Below are positions 13,189-53,514 of a stretch of DNA of 64,000 nucleotides, one piece after another. This stretch comes from Scenedesmus sp. PABB004 (lineage: Eukaryota): the NCBI GenBank assembly GCA_014905635.1, contig JABVCE010000022.1, positions 372,001 to 436,000 of the forward strand. Reading direction: 5' to 3'. A program made the translations under genes and the position numbers. The notes beneath the pieces were generated by a model. It was given only the letters and a program-made list of their open reading frames with translations. It ran no database searches and was not told the DNA's origin. The stretch's first letter is position 1; each line of letters begins with the position of its first letter.

Positions 13189-16100
13189 ATGGCGTCAATG
13201 ATGAGCGGCGGGAGCGGTCGTCTCGCGAGCAGTGGCGCGCGGCAGCTGCGCCGGCGGCAGCAGCAGCAGCGGCAGCGGCGCTCGGCGGGGCGGCGGCAGC
13301 AGCGCGGCATCAGCGGCCGGCGGCGGCAGCAGCAGCAGCAGCGGCGGAGGTGGCGGCAGGCGGCAGGCGACGGCGGCAGGCGGCGCCTGCGCACGAACGG
13401 GCAGCTCACGGCGCCGCGACCGCCGCGCCGGCACGCCGCGCAGAAGGAGGCGGTGCACGAGGCGGAGGCGGAGGACGAGACAGTGCTGGCCAGGATGGGC
13501 TACAAGCAGGAGCTCAGCCGGCAGGCGAGTCCTGGCTTGAAGGGGGGTGGGGCAGCTGCTGCCGCCGCCGCCGCCCTCGGCCGCCCGCGCCGCGCGCCGC
13601 GCGCCGCACTTCGCCGCCACGCCGCCGCGTCTGCGTCTGCGTCCGCGTCCGCAGCTGAGTCTGTTCAACTGCTTCGCCACGACCTTCAGCTTCCTCTCCC
13701 CCATCACCGGTGCGCGCCCCGCCGCCGCCCGCCCGCGCCGGCCGCCCTCCGCCCGCGCTGGCCGCCCTCGCCTCGCGCCCACGCGCCCGCCTCCTCCCTC
13801 CTCCTCTCCACGCCTCCTCCCCCCCCCCCCCTCCTCCTGGCCAGGGCTGACCGGCACCTACGTCTTTCTCTGGCTCTACGGCGGCCCGTCAGCGCGGTGT
13901 GGGGCTGGCCGCTCGTGAGCGCCGCAAACTTCATCGTCGGCCTCATTCTTTCAGAGATCTGCAGCGCCATGCCCACCGCCGGCGGGTGGGGCCGCGCGCT
14001 GCGCAGCCGCCGCCTCCACGCGCCGCCGCCCGCCCACCTCTGCCCGCCCGCCCGCCCGCGTCCCGCCGTGCCTCCCGCCCACCTCTGCCCGACCTGCCCC
14101 CCCCCACCCCCCCACCCACCCCCGGCCAGCGTCTACTACTGGTCGCACCACCTCGGCGGCCCCCGCGTGCGCGGCTCGCGTCGTGGTGGGCGGGTTGGTT
14201 CAACCTGCTCGGCCAGATCGGCAGCAGCGCGGGCGTGGCGTACACGAGCGCGCTGCTCATCGGTGCGCACACGCGGCGACCGCGCGGCGGCGGCGGCAGC
14301 GCCGCCGAGCCCGCGCGCGCCAGCGGCAGGCTGGGCGGCGCGCGCCGGCGGCAGGCCGAGCGCCGCGCTGCCCTCCCCCGCCTCCCCCCTGGCGGCCAGG
14401 TGACTTCATCAAGGCCGGCAGCGGCGGCAGCGCCGGCGCGCCCGCGGGTGCGGCGCCCGCGCGCGCCCGCGCGGGGACTGCGCGCGCCGCGCCGCCGCGC
14501 GCGCGCCGCGCCGCCGCGCGCACGCCACGCCGCTGCCTCCCCCGCCACACACACACGCACACACCGCCGCCGCCGCGGCCGGCGGTCAGGCGTGGTGCTG
14601 AGCCAGCCGGCGCTGCTGGGGCTGTACGCCGCCGTCCTCATACTCATCGGCCTCGTCAACACAGTCACCGTGCGCGCGCTCGGCGTCGTCGGGGAGATCT
14701 CGAGTGAGCCCAGGCCGCCCGCCCGCGCACAGGCCGCGCCCAGCCCGCGCCGCGCCGCGCGGCGCGGCGCGGGGGCCTCGGGCGCCGCGCGCGCCGCGCC
14801 CAGCAGGCCGCGCCGTCTCACGTCACGACCTTTAGAATCCTCCCCTCCCCCTAAAACCCTCCCCTCCCTCAAAACCCTGACCCCAAAACCCTCCCGCCGC
14901 CCGCGCCGCGCAGTCTGGTTCCACCTGATCGGCTGCACCGCGTTTGTGGTGCTCCTGCCCGCGCTCGCGCCGACGCACCAGAGCGCGGCGTGGGTGTTCA
15001 CCACGTTTGCGCCAAACACCGCCTACAGCGGCATCGAATCCCTGCCCCTCATGTGCGGCCGGCCGGCGGGGCCTTGCTGGCTGCGCGGTTCATTGAGTTT
15101 TGTTTCGGGTTCAGGGTTTAGGGTCGAGGGTTGAGCCTCTCTGCCGCTGCCTGCCCACGAGCGCGGCGGCGCGCGCACGCGCGCCCACGCGGTCGCAGGT
15201 TCATCCTCTCCCTGCTCGGCTGCCAGTGGGCCATGGTCGGCTACGACGCCGCAAGCCACCTCACAGAGGAGACGCACGCCGCAGACGTGTCGGGTGCGTT
15301 TTCCCGCCGCCCCCGGCGGCGCTGTGCACGCCTGCGCCGCGCCACCCACCCCTAAAAACCCTTGCCCGCTCGCACCCCCTCGCTAAACCCTGTTGCCAGG
15401 CCCGATCGCGATCCTCGCGACGATCGGCTTCGGCTTCCTGCTCGGCATGGCCTTCCTGCTCTCGGTGACCTTCTCCATCCAGGTGGGTGTTCTGAGCGTG
15501 CTGTGCGTGCTGAGTGTGCCGTGTGTGACGTGTGTGATGTGTTTGTGCGTGTGCGGCTCCTCCCGCGCGGCCCTGCCACAGCCCGCCGCCGCACGCGCAA
15601 CACCACCACTCAACCCTGACGCAGGACCCCGCGAGCGTGTCTGGGTCGACGATCAACCCCGTCATGCAGATCGCATGGGACGTCTTCCAGGCCCGGTGCG
15701 CGCGTCGGGCGCGCACGCGGGGCGCCGCGCGGCGCACGCGGGGGGCGCGCGGGGCGCCGCGCGGCGCAACGCCCCGGCGGCGCGCCCTCGCAGCAAGCAG
15801 CCCTCCACGGCGCCGCCGCCGCGCCCCGCCGCCCTGCCCCACACGCGTCTGCGCGCGACCGCGATCGCGCACACAACACGCCCGCTCCCCTCCCCACGCG
15901 CGCCGACAGCTTTGGCAGCGGCCTGGGCGGCCTGGGGCTCATGGTCGTCCCGCTCGCCTGCTCCCTCTTCTGCGGCAACGCCTGCGTCACCTCCACCTCG
16001 CGGTGCGGCGCCGCGGGGGCTGTGAGCGGGGCGCAGCGGGGCCTTGGCTGAGACAGGGGTGTTGAGGGAGGAGGGCTCGAGTGCCCCCGCGGCCCCCGCG

Positions 16101-34687: not shown

Positions 34688-36598
34688 TCACCCCTCGCCC
34701 GCGCCTGCTGCCTGCGCCGCGTCGGCCGCGCCGCCGTCCGCGTGGGCCGCGGCGGCGGCGGTGGCGGCCGCCGCCAGCGCCGCGAGCGCGCCAGGCAGGC
34801 CGCTGGCGTCGCCGCCCGCCGCGTAGTGCGCCTGCGGCTGGCCGGCCGGCGCCGGCGCGGCGCCGCCCAGCAGCCCCAGCTGGTTGGCCGCCAGCAGCAG
34901 CAGGCTCGGGTTGAGCGCGGCGCTGCCATGCCCAAAGCTGCCGGCGCCGGCGGCCGGGCCCCGCACCCCCGCCGCCGCTGCGCCGAGGCCGGCGAGCTGG
35001 CTCAGGCCGGCGAGCGCGGGCAGGCCCTGCAGGCCGCCGAGCCCCGCCGCCGGCGTCGCGCCGTAGCTTGCCGCTCCGCCGACGCCTAGGACGCCCAGCG
35101 CCGCCAGCAGCGAGGAGGGGCCGGCGCCGCCGCCCGCCGCCGCCGCCGGCGGCGCCGGCGCCGCCGCGCCGTAGCTGGCCGCTCCGCCGCCGCCGCCGCC
35201 GCCGAGGGCGCCGAGCGCGGCCAGCAGCGAGGAGGGGCCGGCGCCGCCGCCCGTCGCCGCCGCCGCCGCCGCCGCGAGCAGGGACTGCGCGGCGCACGGC
35301 GCCTGCGGCGCGGCGCCGGCGCCGCTGCCAAAGATGGCGGCCAGCGCAGCGAGGACGACGGGGTTCATCGCCTGCAGGTTCTGCAGGCCGTGCATGAACA
35401 CGCCGGGGCTGATGCCCGCGGCGGCGGCGAGCGCGGCGGCGGCGCCGACCGCGCCCGCCGCGCCCGGCGCGGCGCTCGTCGCGCCGCCGCTGCTCGCGGC
35501 CGCGGCCGCGCCGCCCGCGAGCTGCGCCAGCATGTCGGCCAGCGCCCCGCTGCTGCTCTGGCTGCCGCCGCCGGCGGCGGCGTAGTGGTAGCCGCCAAAG
35601 CCGGCGGGCGCGTACGCCGCGCCGGCGGCGGCGTGCTGCGCGTAGCCGCCGGCCGCCGCCGCGGCGAGCTCCGGGCCGAGGCCGCCGCCCGTGGCGGGGT
35701 GCGAGGCGGGGTGGTGCGGGTAGTGCGCGAAGGGCGAGCCGCCGGCGCCGCACGGCTCCGGCGCCGCGCCGCCGCCGCCGGCGTAGCGCGCCGGCACGCC
35801 CACCGCGCCCCCGCCGCCGGCGGCGCCGGCGGCGGCGCGCCGCGGCGCGCGCTGGCCGGCCATCGCGGCCGCGATGTGGTCGAGCGCCTCGGCGCTGAGC
35901 GGCGTGCCGGGCGGCAGCCCCGCGACGCGCTTCAGGTAGAGGCGGTACTTCTGCAGGTGGCTTGCCACGTTCTCACGCGTCATCCCCGGCACGCCCATCA
36001 TCGACAGGATGGTCTTGGGCACCGCGTTGCGGATGCCCAGCTGCGCCACGGCGGCGAGGAAGCGCGCGTGCAGCTCGGGCGTCCAGATGAGCCGCGGCCG
36101 CTTGCTGCCGCGCCGCGCGCCGCCCGGCGGGTCCGCGCCGGGCTCGCCGTCGCCGTCGGCGTCGTCGCCCTCCGCCTCGGTCTCGCCCTCCTCGCCCATG
36201 CCGTCAAACGCGTCGGCGTCGCCGCCCAGGCTCGCGCCAGCGGACGCCGCGCGGGCCGCCTGCATGCCCGCGGCGTCGCCCGGCGCGCCCGCCCCGCCGC
36301 GCCGCCTGCGTCGGCGGCGGCGGCGTCTGGCATGGCGGCGTCCTGCGCCTCCTGCTGCGTCGGCGAGGCGCCCTCGCCCGCCGTAAGCAGCTTGGGCCGC
36401 TTGGCGAGCTGCAGGGCCTGGCCCTCCTCGCCGCTGGCCTCGCTGCTGCCGCCGCCGCTGCCAGCGGCGCCCGGCTCGTGGCCGCGCTTGTGGTGCGGCT
36501 GCTTGCGCGGGTCGGCGGCCGCCGACGACTGCGGCTCCTGCTGCTGCGAGGCCTGCATTGACTGGAGCTGCTCGCGCACCCAGCGCTCCGCCTGCTGC

Positions 36599-36630
<32 letters not shown>

Positions 36631-37768
36631 GTGCTGCTGTTCATGCTGCTGCTGCTCCGCGCCATGGCCGTGCTGCCCGTGGCGGCCGTGGGCGTGGCGG
36701 CGGTGCGCCGGCAGCGCTGGCGGCGCCGGCGGCAGGCGCGACAGGCTGAGCAGGTTGTGGGCCTGCTGCAGCATGGCCTGCTGCTCGGCCGACAGCCGCG
36801 CGACGTCGGCCGCGGCCGCGTCGTCATCGGCGGCCCCGTCGTCCGCGGGCGGCGCGCCCCTGGGCGGCCGTCCAGCCGGCGGCGTCGTCGTGCGGCCGCT
36901 CTGCTGCCGCGACTGCTGCAGCTGCTGGCTGAACTGGCTGAACGCGCCGGCGGTGGCCGCCGACTGCCCGGATGCGTCGTTGCTGGCGCCGAGGGAGCTG
37001 GCGCCGTCGCCCGCGGCCGGCGCGACGGGCGCGCTGGGCGGCAGCTGCGCGCGAGCGCCCGTGCCGCTGCCGGCGCCGCTGCCGCCCGAGCCGCTGCCGT
37101 CGCTGGCATCGTCGCCCTGCTGCGCAACACCCAGCTCCGGCGCGGCATGCGTCTGGCCGCCCGCGCCGTGCGCCAGCAGCGGCTGCAGGCCGCCCAGCTG
37201 CTGCTGCATCAGCAGCGCCTGGACCTCGGGGGCCAGGCCGCCGCCGCCGGCGCCGCCGCCCAGCTGCGCCTGCAGCTGGGCCACCGCCGCCAGCGAGGCC
37301 AGCGGGCCCGCCGACGCCGCCGCGGCGGGGCCAAACACGCCGCTGGCTGCGGCCGCGGCCGCCGCGCCCGCGCCGGCCGCGGCCACGCCGCTGCCCAGCT
37401 GCGCGAGCAGCGCCTGCAGCTGCGTCGCTGCGGGGCCGGCGGGGCCGGCGCCGCCGCCCGCCGCCGCCGCCGGCAGCTGCTTGCTGGTCGCCGCCACCGC
37501 CGCGGGCTGCGCCGCGCACGCTCCCACGAGCGCCGACAGCAGGGCCGGGTGTGCGCCCACCAGCGCAGCCGCCGCGGGGTTCGCCAGCAGCGAGGCCAGG
37601 TTCTGGTGGCCTGCGCGCGCAGCGGCAGCAGCGGCGGTGAGCCGAGAGGCCGCCGTCGATTGCCGCGCCGGCGGCGCCGCGCCGCGACCGGCCGCGCCGG
37701 CGTTGCCCGCGCCACGCACCTCCGTCGCCGGTTACCTCAACTCCTGACTTTGGAGTTCCCGATTCCAT
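34688..37768 (-). CDS. GARP/SHAQKYF Myb transcription factor, LUX ARRHYTHMO/PCL1-like
   Basis: [59 protein letters not shown] (~35925-36105); Gln/Ala-rich N-terminal part in another frame, joined near ~36290; first exon [16 protein letters not shown], intron ~37612-37719; no receiver domain seen. Confidence 0.85.
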
Positions 37769-37855
37769 GGCCTGCGGAGCGCCGGCGCGCGTGGGCTCGC
37801 CAAACGTGCGGAAAGGAGCAGGGGCATGCCCTCCTCCCGATCGCTCCGCGCGCCA

Positions 37856-40101
37856 CGGCCCCCGCGCGCACGCCCGGCGCCGGCGGGCGGCGCCCCGGCG
37901 CCGTCGCGCGGGCGCGGCGCGCCCCCGCGCCCTGGGCGGCGCTGATTCGCCGGCGCCAGCCGGAGAGCTGCCTGATTTTCCGCCCGCGCCGCGCGCCGCG
38001 CGCCGCAGGCCCCGCGCGGTGGCGGGACCGCTCACCCTGGGCAGCGCACGGCCGCCGCTGGGCCAACCGCCGCAGGGGCGCCCCGCGCGCCGAGCGGTGC
38101 TTCTGGTGGCCCGTGCGCGGAGCCGGCGTGCGGGCCGCCGCCGAGGCCCTCAGCCCTCCCCGTCCTCCTCCTGGGCTGCCTGGGCCATGTGGGCCGTGCA
38201 GGCCGGCGCGTGGCGCTGAGGCTGCCTGTGCGTGGCCCCGACTGGTGCGCTTGTGGGCGCTGCGCTGGCCGGCTGCCGCGCGTGGTGCTGGCGGGTCGTG
38301 GAGCCCGGGATCGATGGCCGCGGGCGCAAGCTGCGCGGGGGCAGTCGCGAGCGCTGATTTTGTCACTATTTGCAGATATGGTCACATATGCTTGGAGGTC
38401 GCGCCCGCACTGAGCGGCCAGCCTTCTGAGCGCGCGGCTGTGGTCGGCCGCCGCCGGCAGCGCTCGGCCGGGCGCGCGCGCGACGCCGGCCCGCAGGCCC
38501 GCACAATCCTGGTCGCGCCCGCCGCGCGCCAGCCCGGAGCCGCGCGGTGCGTGCGGGCGCTGTGGGACGAGACGGTGCGGCCACGCGGGCGCCGCGCCAG
38601 GGTGGCGGCCCCAGCGCGCCGCGCGCGGGCGGCGGAGCCGGGCGCCGCCGCGCGGCGCGGCCGCCGCCGCGCGGGATCATCCCGCATGATGCATGCACCC
38701 CGGCGGGGCACGCCGGCGATCGCCTGGCTCGCGAGCCAGGCCGGCGCCTGCGGGGCAGCGGCGGTGCGGCGGGCGCGCGCTGCGTCAAAGCCCCGCGCCG
38801 CGGGGCCCTGGCGGCGAGCCGCCCGCCGGCTGCCGCGCGCCTGCGCCGCAACCGCGTGCGAGCGGGCAGGCCCTGCATAGCAGCAGCAATGGCCCCGCCG
38901 GGCGCGGGCAGCCATCCCCCGCAGGCCAGGCATTGGCGGCCGGTGGGCCGGTGCTGCCGAGCGGGTGCAACCCGGCCCCCGCGTCGTGAGAAGCGCTGAT
39001 TGCCGGCGCCAGCCGCCAGAGCTGCTGCCTGGTTTTTCGCGCGCGCCGCGCCCCGCGCGCCGCAGGCCCTGCGCGCGGACGCGGCGGCGGCTCACCCTGG
39101 GCCACCCCCGCGCCGGGCGCGCCCCCGGGGGCGCGCGAAGCCATTGCTAATGGCTGCTGCTATGCAGGGCCTGCCCGCTCGCACGCGGCTGCGAGCGGCG
39201 CAGGCGCGCGGCAGCCGGCGGGCGGCTCGCCGCCAGGGCCCTGCGGCGCGGGGCTTTGACACAGCGCATCATGCGGGATGATCCCGCGCGGCGGCGGCCG
39301 CGCCGCGCGGCGGCGCCCGGCTCCGCCGCCCGCGCGCGGCGCGCTGGGGCCGCCACCCTGGCGCGGCGCCCGCGTGGCCGCACCGTCTCGTCCCACAGCG
39401 CCCGCACGCACCGCGCGGCTCCGGGCTGGCGCGCGGCGGGCGCGACCAGGATTGTGCGGGCCTGCGGGCCGGCGTCGCGCGCGCGCCCGGCCGAGCGCTG
39501 CCGGCGGCGGCCGACCACAGCCGCGCGCTCAGAAGGCTGGCCGCTCAGTGCGGGCGCGACCTCCAAGCATATGTGACCATATCTGCAAATAGTGACAAAA
39601 TCAGCGCTCGCGACTGCCCCCGCGCAGCTTGCGCCCGCGGCCATCGATCCCGGGCTCCACGACCCGCCAGCACCACGCGCGGCAGCCGGCCAGCGCAGCG
39701 CCCACAAGCGCACCAGTCGGGGCCACGCACAGGCAGCCTCAGCGCCACGCGCCGGCCTGCACGGCCCACATGGCCCAGGCAGCCCAGGAGGAGGACGGGG
39801 AGGGCTGAGGGCCTCGGCGGCGGCCCGCACGCCGGCTCCGCGCACGGGCCACCAGAAGCACCGCTCGGCGCGCGGGGCGCCCCTGCGGCGGTTGGCCCAG
39901 CGGCGGCCGTGCGCTGCCCAGGGTGAGCGGTCCCGCCACCGCGCGGGGCCTGCGGCGCGCGGCGCGCGGCGCGGGCGGAAAATCAGGCAGCTCTCCGGCT
40001 GGCGCCGCGAATCAGCGCCGCCCAGGGCGCGGGGGCGCGCCGCGCCCGCGCGACGGCGCCGGGGCGCCGCCCGCCGGCGCCGGGCGTGCGCGCGGGGGCC
40101 G
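37856..40101. repeat. Long inverted repeat: arms ~37856-38893 and ~39140-40101, ~245-bp spacer
   Basis: Read directly: ttttgtcactatttgcagatatggtcacatatgcttggagg (~38358) vs cctccaagcatatgtgaccatatctgcaaatagtgacaaaa (~39560); identical ORF translations on opposite strands (e.g. 38032-38385 - and 39573-39926 +). Confidence 0.97.
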
Positions 40102-40494
40102 CCCTGCTGGGCGGGGCGCGCGGAGTGCTGGGTGCCCTACTCCTGCCGCCGTGTGGGGCCCTGCCAGCACGCACTCGGCGCCCACAGCGCGCGCGGTGCG
40201 CGGCCGCAGGGCTCGCCGCCAGGGCTCGCGCGGCGCGGGGCATTTGGCGCGGCGACGACAGCCCACGCCCGCCGCGTCCGCCGGTTGTTCGGGTGCTCGT
40301 CGGGCTCACCGGCGCGACCGCAGGCGCACGCGCTCTCGCACGGGAGCAGAGCGCCCGGGCGCCAGCGCGGGGGCCGCTCAAACAGGGGCAGCCGCGCTCC
40401 ACGCGACCCGCGACCGCCTGGAGCGCGTGGCGCCAGCCTTGGGTACGCGGCGTGGGGGCATGGAGGTGCTCAGGTGGGCGGGCAGGGCCAGCTG

Positions 40495-42243
40495 ATGGAT
40501 GGAGCAGCGGCGGCAGCTGCGGGAGCAGCATGCCCAGCGGGCGGCCATTCCCGCACGCCCATCTCCTTCATGCTCCCGCGCGCCGCTGCCTCGCGGCTGC
40601 CCGCTGCCGCGCGGTCGGTGCGCGTCGGCGGCGGCCTGGGCCGCGCGTCGGCGGCGGCCTGGGCCGCGCGCCGCCGCTGCAGCCCCAGCCGCCCCGCGCT
40701 GCGCCGCGCAGGTCGCTGTGTGGCGGCGAGCCGCCGCCGGTCACGTGCACCACGCGGCCGGGGCAGGTGGACGCGGTGCCGGAGCAGACGGCGAGCCTCA
40801 TCGCGCCGGGGCCGGCCGTGCTGCACGCGCTCACCGGTCCCGGCGACGGCGCGGCCGGCGCCAAGCACAAGCTCGCCGGTGCGGCGCGCGGCGGCAGCGC
40901 GGCCAGGCCGCGCCCGCGCGGTCGGCGCTCACCCGCGCCGGCGCGCGCCGCGCAGAGCTCGGCGTCGCCTGGCAGCCGCAGGCAGAGGAGCCGGCCGGCG
41001 CGGCGCGCGGCGGCGGCGGCGGCGGCGCGCAGCAGCAGCCGTGCTGCTGGGGCGAGGCGCTGTCCCTGTACGACCGCGACCCCGCCACGGGCGCGCGCAA
41101 CGGCGAGCCCGTGGCCGACTGCTTCGCGGCGCTCGCCTACGCCGACGGCGGCGCCGTGCTGGCGCTCGCCGATGGCGTCAACTGGGGCGAGCGCGCGGCC
41201 GCCGCGGCGCGCGCCGCCGTGCACGGCTTCGTCGTGCACGTGCATGCCGAGCTGGCGGCCAAGCAGGGTGCGCGGCGCGGCCGGCGCGCGGGGCACGCGG
41301 GCGGCCGCGGCGGCAGGCGGCGCTGCGGCAGCCGCGCAACACAGCCCCGCAGCCCACGCCGCCGCCGCCGCCGCCGCCGCCGCTGCAGGCGGCCGCCCCG
41401 TCGGCAGCGCCGCCGCGTTTGGCGTCCTGCGCGCCGCGGTGCACGCGGCGCAGGCACAGGTGCTGGCGTCGGACGGCACGCTCACCACGCTCGTGGGCGC
41501 GCTCGTCGCGCGGCCGCGGCGCGGCGGCGGCGCGCGCGCGCTGTGCGTGGTGATCGGCGACAGCCCCGCGTACGCCTGGCGCGCCGGGCAGCGCGCCGTG
41601 GAGGAACTGAATTACGTTCCGCCCCCGCACGGCTTCCACAGGTGCGGCCGCGGCGCACGCGCACGCGCACGCGCCGCCGCTCGCCGCGCCGCGCCGCCGC
41701 CCGCCGCGCCGCGCCGCCGCCCGCCGCGCCCGCCCGCGCCGCGGCCGCGGCCGACGCGCCGGCCCACGCGCCGCGCCAGGGACCCGCGCGCGTGCCCGGG
41801 GTGCCTGGGCTACGCCATCGGCGAGGCGCCCGACCTGAGCAACATCAGCTACAGCCTCACGCGCCTCGACCCGGGTGCGGCGCGCGGCGCCCGCGCCCGC
41901 CCCGCCCGCCTTTCCGCCCTCGCGCCCGCGGCCCACCGCGCCCGCGGCTCACCGCTCGCCGCGCCTGTGGCTCACCGCGCACCGCGGCCGCGCCCGCGCC
42001 GATCCGCCGCGGCCGCGCCCGCGGCGCAGGTGACGTCATCTTCCTGGCCAGTGACGGCGTGTCGGACAACTTTGACCCGGTCGTGCGCAAGCACGCCTCC
42101 GCGCGCCCCAGCAGCGAGGGCAGCAGCCGGCTGCCCGGCGTCGGCGCGCTCAGCCCGGCGACGTGCCACAGCATGGCCCTCGCCGAAATGGCGGCCACGC
42201 TCGCAGACGCGTGCCGCGGCGGCGCGGCGGCGGCGGCGGCGCT

Positions 42244-42306
<63 letters not shown>

Positions 42307-42612
42307 GCCCCGGGCGCGGCGCAGCGCGGCGGCGGGCCGCAGACGGCGGCGGCGCCGCAGGCCGGCGCCAGCGGCTCGCCGCTGCCGCTCCCGCCGCCAG
42401 ACGGGCGCGCGCTCACGGCGCGCGGCGCGGTAGCGGCGCTGCTCGGCTTTGCGTCGGCCGGCACCGCCGCGCAGCGCGCCGCGCTCGAGGCGCCCGAGCG
42501 GCCGCGCGACGCCGCGGAGCTGGCGGACGAGGTCGCGGCGCTGCCGGGCAAGATGGACCACGCCGCCGTCGTCGCGTTCAAGGTCCCGCAGCGCCCCGCC
42601 GGCGGGCGCTGA
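40495..42612 (+). CDS. PP2C/SpoIIE-fold protein (CG9801-like), multi-exon
   Basis: SLYDRDP..GEPVADCF, LALADGVNWGE..AARAAVHG, TLTTL, VIGDSPAY, PDLSN, DVIFLASDGVSDNFDP, PGKMDHAAVVAF; frame change just after the poly-Q (~42310); start tentative. Confidence 0.82.
42245..42304 (+). repeat. (CAG)20 microsatellite encoding poly-Gln
   Basis: Perfect CAG run in the last exon of the PP2C-like gene. Confidence 0.95.
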
Positions 42613-47511: not shown

Positions 47512-48223
47512 GCCGGACAGCTCCTCGCACGCCTGCGCGCGGGCGGGCGGCGCGCGGGATGATGGTGATACAGCGCAATCGCGGTGACACCGCGCCCCGG
47601 CCGCGCGGACGCCGCGGGAACGGCCTCCTGCAACCTCCCGAGCACAACGAACGGCGCGGCGCGGGCGCCGGGCGCCTGGGGCTCCGCGTGTGCCGCCAAG
47701 CTCCCCGCGCCCAGTCACCGCCATCGCGCCGCCCCGGGCCGTGCAGGCGGCGTCCAAGCGCACCTGGGGTTGCTTGCAGTCGAACGCGCAGCCCGGCGCC
47801 AGCAGCGGCGCCGGCAGCGGGGCGATGAGCGCCATCGTCGCAGCGGGCGGGCTGAGGCCTGCGCCTGAGGGGTCCGGGCGGGGCGGCGGGGCCGCGTGAG
47901 GGGAAGGGGCCCAAGATCAGCGCGCGGGGCGGGCCCGCAGGGGGCGCCCGGCCCGCACGGCGCGGCAGCGGGATGCCTGGCCAAGGGGGCAGCCCTGGCC
48001 CCGCGGCGCGCCGCGGCACGCCGCTGCCACGCGCTGCGCGTCTGGCAGGCTCCGGCGCACCTCAGCAAGGGCGCGTGCGCTGCGCAGAGTCGTGGGCGGG
48101 GGGCCCTGCTCTCGACGCCGAACGTGTGCGAGCTATTTGCTCGGGTAGGGGGCTGAAAGAATAGTGCGTGGGAACCTGGCCGTCGGCACTGGGGGGGGCG
48201 GGGCGTGGCGAGCGGTGGGTGCG

Positions 48224-50617
48224 GCGCGGCCGCGGGGCAGCCGCGGCGTCACATGTTTCGCCCCCGGCGCGCGCCCGGCGCGGCGCGGCAGGCGGCTGCA
48301 GGCGCGCAGGCGCGACGCCCCAGCGGAGACGCGGCGCGGGGCCGCCCGAACGGCCAGACGGTGCGGCCTCGTAGTCGGACGCGTGAGCAAGATGCCTGCC
48401 GTCCGCCGCCAGCGCGCGGTCGCTGCGATCGGCCGCGCCCGGGCCGACGCCCGGTCGGTGCGGTGCCGCGGCGGCGCGGCAGGCGCAGCACGGGCGGCCG
48501 GCTGGCCCCCGCGGGGGCCGGGCGCGGCGGCACGCCCGCGGGGCGCGGGCGCCGCGGCAGCCGGTGGCGGCGGCGGCGCCGCCGCCGCAACGCCAGCGCC
48601 GGGATCTCAGGGCGCGCGGTGGCCAAGCTGCTGCTGACGGTGGCCACGCACCGCTGCGGGTGCGCGGGCGCCGGTGCGCGCCGCCACGTGGCACGCACAC
48701 GTGGCACGATGCGTACGTGCCGCGGTGAGCTGCGGAGGCGTCCGGCTGCCGCGGCGCTGCGGCGGCGGCGACATCCCCGCCGCGGCGGCGGCGTCCCTGC
48801 CTCACCCCAAGAGGCGCGCCGCGCCGGGCGCAGCGGCGGCGGCAGCCGCCGCCGCCGCCGCCCGGGGCGGCGCGGTGGCGCAGCCGATGCCCGGCGCGGC
48901 ACGGCAACAGTGTGGAAAAGCTGCGGGGCATGCACCGGGCGGGCCGAGAGTCGAGCAGGGATGCTCCGGCGAACATTTATATAAAAAAAATGGGCGCCGC
49001 TCCCGGCGCGCGCCGCCGCCCCCGCCCCGCACGCCGCCCAGGTGCCTCCAGCGCGCGTCGCACCCCCGGTACGGATGCTCTGACATGCCATGAGCACGTG
49101 GGTCGTCACGAGCAGCCGCGCGGCGCTGCGGGGCGCGCGCGGGCGCCGGCGTGACGCGTGCTGCGGCGCGTGCTGCGGAGGCTGCCGGCTGAGCTGCGGA
49201 GGCTGCCGGCGGCCGCCGGCCGGCCGGGCAGGTCCGAGCGGCCTGCAGGGCAGAGCGGCTGCGGGCCGGCCCGCGCCCCCGCGGCGCGCAGCGAGCTCGC
49301 AGCTCGAGGCAGCTGGCATCGCAGCACGCGCAGCGCCGGCGTGGCGCCACTCCAAGCCGGGGCAGCTCCGGCGCGCGCAGCCAGCGCAGGGCCGCATGCG
49401 GCCCTGCGCCCTGCCTGCCTGCGCGCAGGCAGGCAGGGCGTACAGTCAGGCGGGCCCCGCAGGGCCCAGCTGGGCGGCGGCGGTGAGGCGGGCTGCCTCA
49501 GGCCTCAGGCAGCAGGGCACGCCCTGCCGCCTGACCTGCTGCCCTGCTCGTGCGCCTGGACCATGCTGCGCGCGCTCGCCGCCCGCCACCGTCCGCCGCC
49601 CGCTTGGAGCCCCAAACAGATTCCACGCGCGCAAGAACGCCGGCAGGCACGTGCGTGCGCTCCCCACTCTGGGCGGTGCAGTCAGCCCTGCAAGCGTGGG
49701 GGCGCGCGTGCTGGCGGCGGCGCGCGGCCGTGGGGCAGCCGCGACGTGTCGCCTGTGTCGCCCCGGCGCGCGCCCGGCGCGGCGCGGCAGGCGGCCGCAG
49801 GCGCGACGCCCCAGCGGAGACGCGGCGCGGGGCCCGCCCGAACGGCCAGACGGTGCGGCCTCGTAGTCGGACGCGTGAGCAAGATGCCTGCCGTCCGCCG
49901 CCAGCGCGCGGTCGCTGCGATCGGCCGCGCCCGGGCCGACGCCCGGTCGGTGCGGTGCCGCGGCGGCGCGGCAGGCGCAGCACGGGCGGCCGGCTGGCCC
50001 CCGCGGGGGCCGGGCGCGGCGGCACGCTCGCGGGGCGCGGGCGCCGCGGCAGCCGGTGGCGGCGGCGGCGCCGCCGCCGCAACGCCAGCGCCGGGATCTC
50101 AGGGCGCGCGGTGGCCAAGCTGCTGCTGACGGTGGCCACGCACCGCTGCGGGTGCGCGGGCGCCGGTGCGCGCCGCCACGTGGCACGCACACGTGGCACG
50201 ATGCGTACGTGCCGCGGTGAGCTGCGGAGGCGTCCGGCTGCCGCGGCGCTGCGGCGGCGGCGACATCCCCGCCGCGGCGGCGGCGTCCCTGCCTCACCCC
50301 AAGAGGCGCGCCGCGCCGGGCGCAGCGGCGGCGGCAGCCGCCGCCGCCGCCGCCCGGGGCGGCGCGGTGGCGCAGCCGATGCCCGGCGCGGCACGGCAAC
50401 AGTGTGGAAAAGCTGCGGGGCATGCACCGGGCGGGCCGAGAGTCGAGCAGGGATGCTCCGGCGAACATTTATATAAAAAAAATGGGCGCCGCTCCCGGCG
50501 CGCGCCGCCGCCCCCGCCCCGCACGCCGCCCAGGTGCCTCCAGCGCGCGTCGCACCCCCGGTACGGATGCTCTGACATGCCATGAGCACGTGGGTCGTCA
50601 CGAGCAGCCGCGCGGCG
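48224..50617. repeat. Direct repeat of ~900 bp (48224-49125 and 49722-50617), offset ~1492
   Basis: Near-identical over most of the length (e.g. gaacatttatataaaaaaaatggg at 48971 and 50463); duplicated ORF translations in the track; 5' ends more diverged. Confidence 0.97.
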
Positions 50618-51079
50618 GGCGGGGCGGGAAGGGGCGCGGGCGAGCTCAGCATCGTCTCCGCCTGAACGCGTCGCGCTTGAGGCGCCGTACGTCCGCAAAG
50701 GATTGCGACTCCTAGTTATGCATTTCGCACGCGTCCAGCGGACAGGCGCCGGCCTGCCGAGCAGGCGCGCGCCGGCCGCGACCTGCAGCGCAGCCCCTGC
50801 GCGCCGCCGCGGCGCCGCGGCGCGCTGGGTTGAGGTCGGGGCACCCTGGCAGGCTCAGGGAGCGTGGGCGCCGGGCGGCGGGTCGTGGTAAGCGGGTGAC
50901 GGGGCTCGCCAGAGCTCGGCAGGCGGGAGCCGGAGCCTCGCTCTTCATTGCGCCCCCGCTCCCTGGCCCGCCACAGACTCCGCCCGCACACCCCATCGCG
51001 ACTCTTAGACCAAGCTCACAGCCCATATCTTGACGCGCCAGCCCCAATTCCTAGCAAAACGCCCAACTAGGTTCCGCAC

Positions 51080-53514
51080 ATGATGGCCTCCGCGCTCTGC
51101 CTCCTCGTGCTCCTGGCTGCCGCGCAGACTGTGACCGGCCGCGTACACACATTCAAGCCCGTTGCGGGTGCGCGCCGCGCCGCGGCGGGCTCGGGCGCGC
51201 GCCGCGGGGGGCGGCCAATGCGGGCGGCGTTGCCGCGCCCTACCGGCGCGCGCCGCGGCGCCGCCGTGCGGCCCAGGCGCCGTGCACCATGCCGCCCTCT
51301 CACAATCTCGCGCCTCCCGCCGCCCGCGCCCGCAGGCGACTCCGCGCCGCGCTTCGCCGGCCGCGGCCTCCGCGCCGCCGCCCCGTCCGTCCCCGCGGGT
51401 GAGCGCCGCGGCCACGAGCTTGTCGCCGCTGACCGCGCGCCGGGGCGGCGCGGCGGGGCCGCGGCGCGGCGCGGCGCGGCAGCGCCCCGCGGCCTCGCAC
51501 CCATGTTCGCACCCCCGCTCACGTCCGCGCCGCGCCGCCGCCCGCGACCCCCCCGCAGGCCTGGGCGACGTGATTGAGGGCCAGTTCATCGTCACGCTCG
51601 CGCCGGACGCGGGCGAGCCCGCCGACGTCGCGGGGCAGCTGTCCGCGCACGTGGCCAAGGCGCTCAGCCAGCCCCTGCGCGGCGTGGCGGCGGCGGCTGC
51701 AGGCGCAGGCGCCGGCGCGTTCGAGCTGGTGTCCACCCTGGGCGGCGCCCCCGCCAGCGGCGCGCGCGGCGCGGCCGCCGCGGGCGCCGGCCGCGGCGTC
51801 GCGGCGGTGCGCGGCCTCGTCGTGCGCGCGCGGCCCGCCGCGGTCGCGGCGCTGCGCGGCAGCAGCCTCGTGTCGGCGGTCTTCCCCGACCGCGTGGTGG
51901 CGTCGCAGCAGATCGGCCGCGGCACCGCGGCGCTGGGCTGCGTGGACGCCGCAGCGCTCGCCGCCGGCGTGAGCGCGCCCGCCAGCCCCCGGCTCAAGTG
52001 GGCCGGCTGCTACGCGGCCGCGACCACCAAGCTGGTCTGGGTCGGCCGCCCCTGCGGCGACGGCAGCCAGGTCGAGTACACCGAGGTGCGCGCGCGCGGC
52101 GCGGCACCGGCAGCGCCAGCCCGCCCCGCGCCGCGCCGCGCTCTCGCCTCGCCCACCGCGCGGCGCTCACCCGCCCCCCGCGCCGCGCTGCCCGCCCCAG
52201 ATGCGCGCCGTGGACAGCACCAGCAACGCTGTGCTCTCGGCGGCCGGCCGTGCGTGCGTCGCGCTGCCGGAGCCCAAGCGCGCGGCCCTCACCAAGCAGC
52301 GCTTCGGCGCCTGCGGCGTCGCGCCCCTGCACGCGCCCTCCCTCCCCACGCGCGTCTGCACGGCCACCGGCGGCGGCAGCAGCAGCAGCAGCAGCAGCCG
52401 CGCCGACACCGCGCCCGTGGCCTCGCCCGCGCCCGTGGAGGTGCCGTCGTCGTCGCCCGTGGCGGTGCCGTCGCCGTCGCCGTCGCCCGTGGAGGCGGCC
52501 TCGCCCTCGCCCGCGCCCGCGTCGTCGCCCGCGCTCCCGCGCGTGCCCGTCACGGCCGGCGAGTCGGTCGCCGCCGGCGTGACGCGCATCGAGGCGGTCA
52601 CGCCCGCGGGCGCCGTCGACGGCGCGTCGTCCGGCCGCGTCGTGGTCGTCGGCATCGTCGACAGCGGCGTGGACGGCACGCACCCCGACCTCAACCTCGT
52701 CGGCGGGACCTCGTTCGTGCCGTCCGAGCCCGCCGCCGACGCCGACGGCTACGGCCACGGCACGCACGTCGCGGGCATCATCGGCGCGCGCAACAACGGC
52801 GCCGGCGTCGTCGGCGTGTCGCCCGGCGTGCCCCTGTACAGCCTGCGCGTGCTCGACGCCTCCGGCCGCGGCTCGCTCAGCGGCGTGCTCGCCGCCGTCG
52901 CGTGGGCGGCCGGCCCCGAGGGCGCGGCCGCGGGCATTCGCGTCATCAACCTCAGCCTCGCCGCGTACGTCGACCCCACCAGCGCCGACTACCCGGCCAC
53001 GCGCGACGCGGTGTGCGCGTCGTTCACCGCCGCCGCGGCCGCGGGCGTCGCGGTCACCGTCGCGGCGGGCAACTACGGCAGCGCGATCGACGGCTACCTG
53101 CCCGCCGCGTGCGCCGACGTCGCGGTCGTGACCGCGCTCAACGCCGACGGCAGCGCGCCCGCCGACTTCAGCAACTACATGTCGGCGGACGCGTCGCCGG
53201 CCGACCGCGCGCGCGTGCTCGCCGCGCCCGGCACCGACGTGCTCAGCACCGTGTCGTTCGCCCGCGACGCCTCCGGCTACAAGCGCCTCTCCGGCACGAG
53301 CATGGCCGCGCCGTTCGTCGCGGGCGTGGTGGCCAACTGCCACCTGTCGGGCGCGTGCGCGCCCGGCGCGCCCGCGGGCGCCGCGCTGGCCACGGTCGGC
53401 GCCGCCGCCGCGGAGCGCGTCGCGTCGGGCGCCTCGTACGGCTTTGCCGGCGACGCGCGCGCGTCGCAGTTTGGCAAGCTCTACGGCCTGCTGGCGTGGG
53501 CCGGGAAGTTCTAA
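51080..53514 (+). CDS. Secreted subtilisin-like serine protease (S8A) with I9-like propeptide
   Basis: Signal MMASALCLLVLLAAAQTVTG; DVIEGQFIVTL..VFPDRVV propeptide; IVDSGVD (Asp), GHGTHVAG (His), AAGN (oxyanion Asn), SGTSMAAPFVAG (Ser). Confidence 0.95.

Follow-up and report, generated by a model that had tools for sequence, protein, structure and literature searches.

As compact arrangements of divergent genes, bidirectional promoter pairs are head-to-head genes whose opposite-strand start sites lie less than about 1 kb apart. The palindromes of primate Y chromosomes are kept identical by arm-to-arm gene conversion, and segmental duplication can cause the capture of a promoter or 5' exon, giving chimeric 5' ends. 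Long hairpin precursors of small RNAs are known in Chlamydomonas, as are ROC15 and ROC75, GARP factors of its clock. A receiver domain separates the type-B ARR proteins from GARP/LUX-type factors.

The locus described here lies in a 64,000-nucleotide window (the whole stretch of DNA that was analysed) from a chlorophycean-like green alga with about 80% GC, and consists of a 2.7-kb non-coding gap with head-to-head genes on either side: a LUX-like gene on the minus strand, running leftwards, and a PP2C-like gene on the plus strand, running rightwards. As in bidirectional-promoter pairs, both genes point away from a single non-coding spacer, an arrangement from which co-regulation would be expected; the locus differs in that the candidate start codons (37769 and 40460) are 2.69 kb apart instead of under 1 kb, and in that the gap holds two inverted copies, one for each gene, rather than one common promoter. 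As in the primate Y palindromes, near-identical inverted arms surround a unique spacer and their identity is far above that of older paralogous copies nearby, but the arms are only 0.84 kb long, non-coding and without genes, and gene conversion would be deduced from the contrast between 99.9% and 93% identity. As in promoter or 5'-exon capture, a duplicated upstream segment now adjoins a different gene, with the derived junction at 37855/37856, although the captured segment is here a putative promoter or exon.

The repeat itself is non-coding. Codon-position GC periodicity disappears between about 37600 and 40650 but is seen on either side of this interval, and of the 17 stretches listed, 37501-40501 is one of only two that lack periodicity over more than 1.4 kb. 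Inside the palindrome, none of ten open reading frames (ORFs) matched Pfam, and searches for Rfam families and tRNAs gave no hits; together with the missing periodicity, these results rule out a coding or RNA gene inside the arms.

The arms align over 837 nt (37856-38692 against 40101-39266) with 99.88% identity and one gap, the sole difference between them being a 1-nt indel, a single C at about 37950 / 40007. The left arm (37856-38692) comprises segments A (37856-38042) and B (38042-38692), the right arm spans 39266-40101, and between the two lies an asymmetric 573-nt spacer (38693-39265) made up of 84 nt found on the left only (38693-38776), a pair of inner arms (38777-38890 and 39150-39267, 93% identical over 118 nt) and a unique centre of about 260 nt. 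The arms are thus much more alike than the inner arms that adjoin them. An attempt to extend the palindrome past the arms was rejected, as the flank-to-flank score of 38 was not significant against 29.1 +/- 4.0 in 200 shuffles (maximum 48).

An error of assembly or polishing could produce such near-perfect identity; the genome itself would then have no second arm, which would have arisen, for example, from a chimeric or fold-back long read or from a collapsed or duplicated haplotype. The arms are identical bar one single-base indel, and 1-nt indel errors are apparently present in this assembly: two homology-supported genes shift frame where no GT..AG intron is available, and with apparent frame errors of this kind in each of the flanking genes, the assembly looks prone to indels. 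A fold-back should, however, be symmetric to its centre, whereas here the inner arms have diverged to 93%, 84 nt occur on one side only, and a central stretch of about 260 nt is unique. The older diverged copies at the locus, described below, record a real duplication history, and a 97.3% direct duplication elsewhere in the window was kept apart by the assembler. We consider an artefact unlikely; the structure is a real, layered, small natural intergenic palindrome.

Long and perfect inverted arms are also what would be expected of a fold-back or long-TIR transposon, or of an inverted-repeat locus whose read-through transcript forms a hairpin of about 840 bp and yields small RNAs. Each arm contains an AT-richer island (38337-38413 in the left arm, mirrored at 39545-39621; 56% GC in the 80% GC window) that holds GCGCTGATTTT, and both the island and the recurring GCGCTGATT and CTGATTTT motifs are confined to the arms, which speaks for an element of this sort. 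Low-complexity matches aside, no further copy of the arms is present in the 64-kb window, which was the extent of the search, and the arms may belong to a family of repeats dispersed elsewhere; there is no target-site duplication or other flanking direct repeat at 37855/40102, and neither a transposase nor any Pfam domain was found in the ten ORFs. A metagenome scan with a 24-mer taken from the island returned zero loci. A mobile or RNA-producing element is, on balance, a very improbable account of the palindrome.

The locus contains further, more diverged copies of the same material. An older direct copy of the outer left arm, A' (38920-39102, plus strand), is 78% identical to 37867-38042, and an older copy of the inner-arm segment, C'' (40157-40254, minus strand), lies outside the right arm; across the locus the copies fall into layers of 99.9% and 93% identity and older ones of 78%, 74% and 72%. 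The interval 39916-40254 aligns to 39102-38778 (72% over 349 nt) and in doing so runs across the arm boundary at 40101, so that the central old copy aligns with the right flank across that boundary, and the left flank shows no such alignment. Because the right arm runs on into older homologous sequence in this way, the left junction (37855/37856), 84 nt from the start region of the LUX-like gene, is the derived one.

We propose that a non-coding unit of about 1 kb was duplicated here several times, so that copies at 72-78%, 93% and 99.9% identity remain. In this history the youngest layer is the inverted pair of 837-nt arms, which would either be very recent or be held identical through arm-to-arm gene conversion. 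The order of the duplications can be only partly reconstructed, as no simple two-step scenario accounts for the plus orientation of A'. The original prediction held that both genes received an identical promoter and non-coding first exon by inverted duplication, which would tie a PP2C-fold protein to the rhythm of a clock transcription factor. The arms do supply identical DNA on both sides; as for the direction of capture, the derived junction lies beside the LUX-like gene and suggests the opposite.

The gene to the left encodes a GARP/LUX-type Myb factor, as judged from its domain content. Its single SHAQKYF-class Myb domain with a SHLQKYR helix (35942-36085, minus strand) matches PF00249 with an E-value of 1.9e-7 and 31.5 bits, above the cut-off of 24.4. 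Among known structures, the DNA-binding domain is matched best by the chains of LUX ARRHYTHMO/PCL1 of Arabidopsis (6qec, E 8.8e-27; 5lxu, E 1.2e-25), and ARR1 scores almost the same (E 1.1e-25); the names among 330 database matches span LUX/PCL1, ARR1, MYBC1 and G2-like. No receiver family was found among the nine minus-strand ORFs scanned, in a gene whose 5' model is ambiguous. Of 8000 candidates scored for the N-terminal ORF, not one came to E <= 0.001; this ORF is collinear with a single algal transcript protein, P0161. The similarity is at domain level, and a role as a rhythmically expressed clock-gene orthologue (LUX or ROC75) is hypothetical.

Two start codons are conceivable for the LUX-like gene, and the choice between them is ambiguous, these being the only minus-strand ATGs between the arm and the coding region. 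The one at 37769-37767 directly follows an acceptor-like CCGCAG (37777-37772; the motif CCGCAG/GCC ATG as a whole occupies 37767-37777), as the original prediction had described, but its frame differs from that of the coding ORF (35998-37731), and reading from it gives G or C at the third position in 4 of 11 codons, against a GC3 of 0.957 in the modelled PP2C-like coding sequence. The alternative at 37825-37827 is in the frame of the coding ORF, but a TAA (37734-37732) intervenes. The gene model would join 37737 to 37602 with the start at 37769, and 37806 to 37610 with the start at 37827. The left arm ends 29-86 nt from these two candidates (29 nt from the upstream one), and because this distance is so short, it is very likely that the transcription start of the LUX-like gene lies in or at the arm.

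What is observed directly is that each gene is preceded, in sense orientation, by the same sequence, the arms facing outward; the two genes share upstream DNA. The most likely consequence is that transcription of the LUX-like gene would now begin inside the left arm or at its edge, and that the LUX-like and PP2C-like genes would then have upstream cis-regulatory DNA in common. We give this reading, a palindrome built by repeated duplication with the LUX-like gene now starting in or at its left arm, a probability of roughly 0.6. The position of the promoter and any co-regulation of the two genes are putative; on the right, the arm ends 359 nt from the PP2C-like ATG at 40460.

This ATG was assigned to the PP2C-like gene by homology to an orthologue from Tetradesmus obliquus. 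In the proposed model, a first coding exon at 40460-40473 (ATG GAG GTG CTC AG) ends at the donor CAG/GTGGGC (40473/40474) and is spliced to 40712, across an intron (40474-40711) that includes both the ATG at 40495 and a second AG at 40484-85. Exons 2-6 (40712-40878, 40956-41267, 41389-41641, 41780-41874 and 42030-42230, plus strand) are collinear with the T. obliquus protein P0007 (E 1.9e-27, 69% identity), and the spliced model aligns with its residues 5-302 with a score of 964; from exon 2 onward the exon structure is established by this homology. The modelled introns are 77-238 nt long. Starts at ATG 40499 or 40530 are possible and not favoured: for the first, G or C occupies the third position in 30 of 39 codons, and for the second in about 51 of 61 (hand count), and their likeness to Chlamydomonadales N-termini is only a short LREQ patch.

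Collinear homology also makes the gene PPM/PP2C_2-like, akin to the Chlorophyceae PPM-type phosphatases of the PP2C_2 family (PF13672), and phosphatase activity is predicted only. Three of the four close hits carry PF13672; the gene's own exon differs in that, taken singly (41045-41263), it stays below the cut-off of that family (E 0.031, 14.3 bits against 24).

The original prediction went further than shared upstream DNA. In its model, both genes start inside the proximal arm, with an identical non-coding first exon that ends in CCAGG/GTGAGC and is spliced to each gene's own coding exon, producing co-regulated mRNAs with the same leader. All of the letters that it quoted, including both outward-facing CCAGG/GTGAGC motifs, CCGCAG/gccATGg, the right-hand AGs and the ATG at 40495, are at the positions given. 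The donor-like motifs (38030-38040, minus strand; 39918-39928, plus strand) are identical mirror images that face outward; they are, however, the same base of the 837-nt inverted repeat, and therefore constitute one observation and not two. A third exact CCAGGGTGAGC, overlooked in the original prediction and lying in the central old copy A' (39090-39100, minus strand), points at no gene, and these three are the only exact matches in the window. The proposed right-hand sites lack support: in the homology-anchored model the AG at 40472-73 (put at about 40473, with another at 40485) is the exon side of a donor and the ATG at 40495 is intronic.

Other features would suit a spliced leader. The CCGCAG acceptor adjoins ATG 37769, and splicing on the left would take out the upstream ATG at 37827; on the right, good CCGCAG/G acceptors are available upstream of ATG 40460 (40204-40209 and 40318-40323), and the introns that would result are close to the lengths modelled for the PP2C-like gene, with 264 nt on the left and either 287 or 401 nt on the right. 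The 11-mer is moreover kept exactly in the 78% copy. Against the leader, other blocks of that copy are conserved over equal or greater lengths (for example, a 17-mer), and the putative leader would hold a 12-codon upstream ORF (39770-39808, mirrored at 38188-38150). All four homology-supported donors of the PP2C-like gene are GTGCG[GC], not GTGAG.

The motifs in question are also common, splice-site look-alikes being everywhere in an 80% GC genome. GGTG[AC]G occurs 203 times on both strands of the window (1.59 per kb per strand), with six per strand inside 37770-40500, and [CT]GCAG has 843 occurrences (6.6 per kb per strand). When up to one mismatch is allowed, the CCAGGGTGAGC 11-mer has five matches where 2.53 are expected, a count reached in 6 of 100 shuffles. 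The pairing of donors with acceptors is no better than chance. A shared spliced first exon is speculative and we judge the model built on it very unlikely; the donor-like 11-mer would instead be a passenger of the duplicated unit.

If both arms do act as promoters, so that one and the same DNA drives the genes of a transcription factor and a phosphatase, an inverted duplication of under a kilobase would have rewired regulation, and the locus would be a clean example of this in nature. With no more than one base of difference between the copies, such a promoter role would be easy to test. As things stand, the value of the locus is mainly practical: identical motifs within one repeat count once, and the homology-anchored model shifts the start codon of the PP2C-like gene to 40460.

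A bolder version of the leader model would have a conversion-maintained palindrome give two unrelated head-to-head genes identical promoters and leader exons with the same 12-codon upstream ORF, coupling transcription and translation, and would make GCGCTGATT, CTGATTTT and GATTCG shared control elements; there is little probability that this is so. Binding sites for LUX are not enriched in the window, where GATWCG has four matches against 11.1 expected, and each arm carries one LUX-site-like GATTCG.

Between the divergent flanking genes, a GARP/LUX-type Myb gene on the minus strand (LUX-like) and a PPM/PP2C_2-like gene on the plus strand (PP2C-like), lies an inverted repeat whose 837-nt arms (37856-38692 and 39266-40101) are 99.88 % identical and enclose an asymmetric spacer of 573 nt. 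The spacer comprises an 84-nt segment on the left (38693-38776) without counterpart on the right, a pair of inner arms of 93 % identity (38777-38890 and 39150-39267), and a central older copy, A' (38920-39102), which repeats 37867-38042 in direct orientation at 78 % identity. Another older copy is located outside the right arm (40157-40254, 74 % to 39167-39266), and 39916-40254 matches the reverse of 38778-39102 at 72 % over 349 nt, unbroken across the arm boundary at 40101. An alignment check of the left flank found no comparable homology running past the arm boundary, and flank-to-flank similarity was not significant (score 38 vs 29.1 +/- 4.0 in shuffles). The differing identities of the copies and the homology crossing the right boundary indicate repeated duplication, in which a unit of about 1 kb was copied at least three times at this locus, at different ages; the right arm is in old context, with the junction 37855/37856 as the derived one. 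The best-supported picture is a palindrome built up in layers within the intergenic region, its youngest arms providing both genes with identical upstream DNA and the copy adjoining the LUX-like gene being the derived one. We found no simple order of duplication events that also accounts for the orientation of A'.

The window has a G+C content of ~80 % throughout and its proteins find their nearest relatives among chlorophycean green algae, so we assign it to the nuclear genome of a green alga with a very high GC content. Both flanking genes contain homology-supported frame shifts with no available GT..AG intron, at ~36270-36330 in a G-run region (minus strand, left gene) and at ~42230-42400 in a (CAG)n region (plus strand, right gene), which are likely 1-nt assembly indel errors or non-canonical introns. 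Because they suggest single-base assembly errors, they call for caution regarding the palindrome, which might itself be the artefact of a fold-back read; the sole difference between the arms, one single-base gap, is likewise an indel of this kind. A fold-back read would, however, be symmetric to its turn, whereas the observed centre is asymmetric and the inner arms are just 93 % alike, which argues against such an origin.

Both genes show a strong codon-position GC periodicity, which is missing from ~37600 to ~40650; among 17 non-periodic stretches listed, this palindrome stretch and 47761-51181 are the sole two that exceed 1.4 kb. None of the 10 palindrome ORFs matched Pfam, and Rfam and tRNA searches of the palindrome gave no matches. 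Each arm carries one AT-richer island (38337-38413 and 39545-39621), a 24-mer of which had no match in a metagenome scan. Two motifs are confined, window-wide, to the palindrome, where either arm has two independent sites for each, and may be candidate cis-elements: GCGCTGATT (5 matches vs 0.35 expected; 37939, 38351 and 38993 plus, 39599 and 40010 minus) and CTGATTTT (4 matches vs 0.05 expected; 37972, 38354, 39597 and 39979). GATTCG occurs once per arm (37944-37949 plus, ~175 nt upstream of a LUX-like ATG at 37769, and 40008-40013 minus) and fits the LUX binding site, GATWCG, a motif that is not enriched in the 64 kb (4 matches, below the 11.1 expected).

The PP2C-like gene yielded four relatives at E <= 0.001, led by the T. 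obliquus orthologue P0007 (69 % identity); three of the four contain PF13672 (PP2C_2). Homology begins at 40712, immediately past an acceptor, and in two Tetradesmus-like read-through ORFs, P0118 and P0147 (2 of the 8 N-terminal matches retrieved, among 150 listed), the match begins at the same residue and ends at the same donor, which indicates a conserved exon. Only nine residues precede this exon in P0007, the ninth spanning the junction, so the first coding exon of P0007 is very short. The window offers an ATG at 40460 followed by 11 nt and the donor CAG|GTGGGC at 40473/40474, in the same phase into 40712, and on this agreement of phase and length, without strong similarity, we propose exon 1. 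The resulting six-exon model has no stop, a GC3 of 0.957, and aligns from its first residue to P0007 residues 5-302; all four homology-supported donors read G|GTGCG[GC].

The left gene encodes a Myb domain (PF00249, E 1.9e-7) at 35942-36085 on the minus strand, whose top structural matches are to LUX (6qec, E 8.8e-27), ARR1 being a close second (E 1.1e-25). The names of the domain's 330 database relatives range over LUX/PCL1, ARR1, MYBC1 and G2-like; the label "LUX-like" accordingly holds at the level of the domain and no further. Upstream of it, ORF 35998-37731 aligns collinearly with the N-terminal region of a single algal transcript protein, P0161 (score 240 vs 108.7 +/- 13.6 in 100 shuffles), and lacks any ATG up to residue ~176, so that splicing must supply the start codon. 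Just two minus-strand ATGs lie between this ORF and the arm, and neither is favoured over the other: 37769 is out of frame, has GC3 in 4 of 11 codons, and requires splicing from GAG|GTAACC to a phase-0 acceptor, e.g. 37602; 37827 is in frame but is separated from the ORF by a TAA at 37734-32, and requires C|GTTTGG joined to a good phase-1 acceptor at 37610. Either candidate is 29-86 nt from the left arm, a geometry by which the LUX-like promoter is very probably inside the arm.

The original prediction proposed that one outward-facing 5'-UTR donor, CCAGGGTGAGC, is spliced into both genes. Every string it quoted is present in the sequence, including exact donor-like matches at 38030-38040 (minus) and 39918-39928 (plus), and CCGCAG (37777-37772, minus) directly before GCC ATG G, whose ATG occupies 37769-37767. 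The two donors are indeed identical, but they are one inverted-repeat position seen twice, hence a single observation, and a third exact copy had been overlooked in A' (39090-39100, minus), where it faces no gene. Splice-like motifs are also abundant in the window (GGTG[AC]G at 1.59 and [CT]GCAG at 6.6 per kb per strand), so a donor and acceptor pair in a 2.7-kb spacer is expected by chance. On the right, the proposed acceptors and ATG 40495 conflict with the six-exon model, in which the AG at 40472-73 forms the exonic part of a donor site and both the AG at 40484-85 and the ATG are intronic; on the left, use of ATG 37827 would likewise render the acceptor and ATG intronic. Common cis-regulation of the two genes is plausible from their shared upstream sequence; a common spliced leader is a speculative possibility drawn from motif geometry, its right-hand details being contradicted. 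A 12-codon uORF (39770-39808 plus, mirrored at 38188-38150 minus; context cacATGg, TGA stop, outward-facing strand) would fall within that putative leader.

Elsewhere, the non-periodic stretch 47761-51181 includes two direct copies of a ~930-nt segment (48224-49151 and 49722-50642; 97.3 % identical, with 13 gap positions) whose sequence has no relation to that of the palindrome, each copy holding an identical AT-rich island (48943-49014 and 50435-50506). Degenerate telomere-like motifs of the CCCTAAAA type (14840-14895) and the reverse GGGTTTAGGG type (15095-15135) flank a segment of ~200 nt that is exon-like, bounded by ...gcgcag| and |g....
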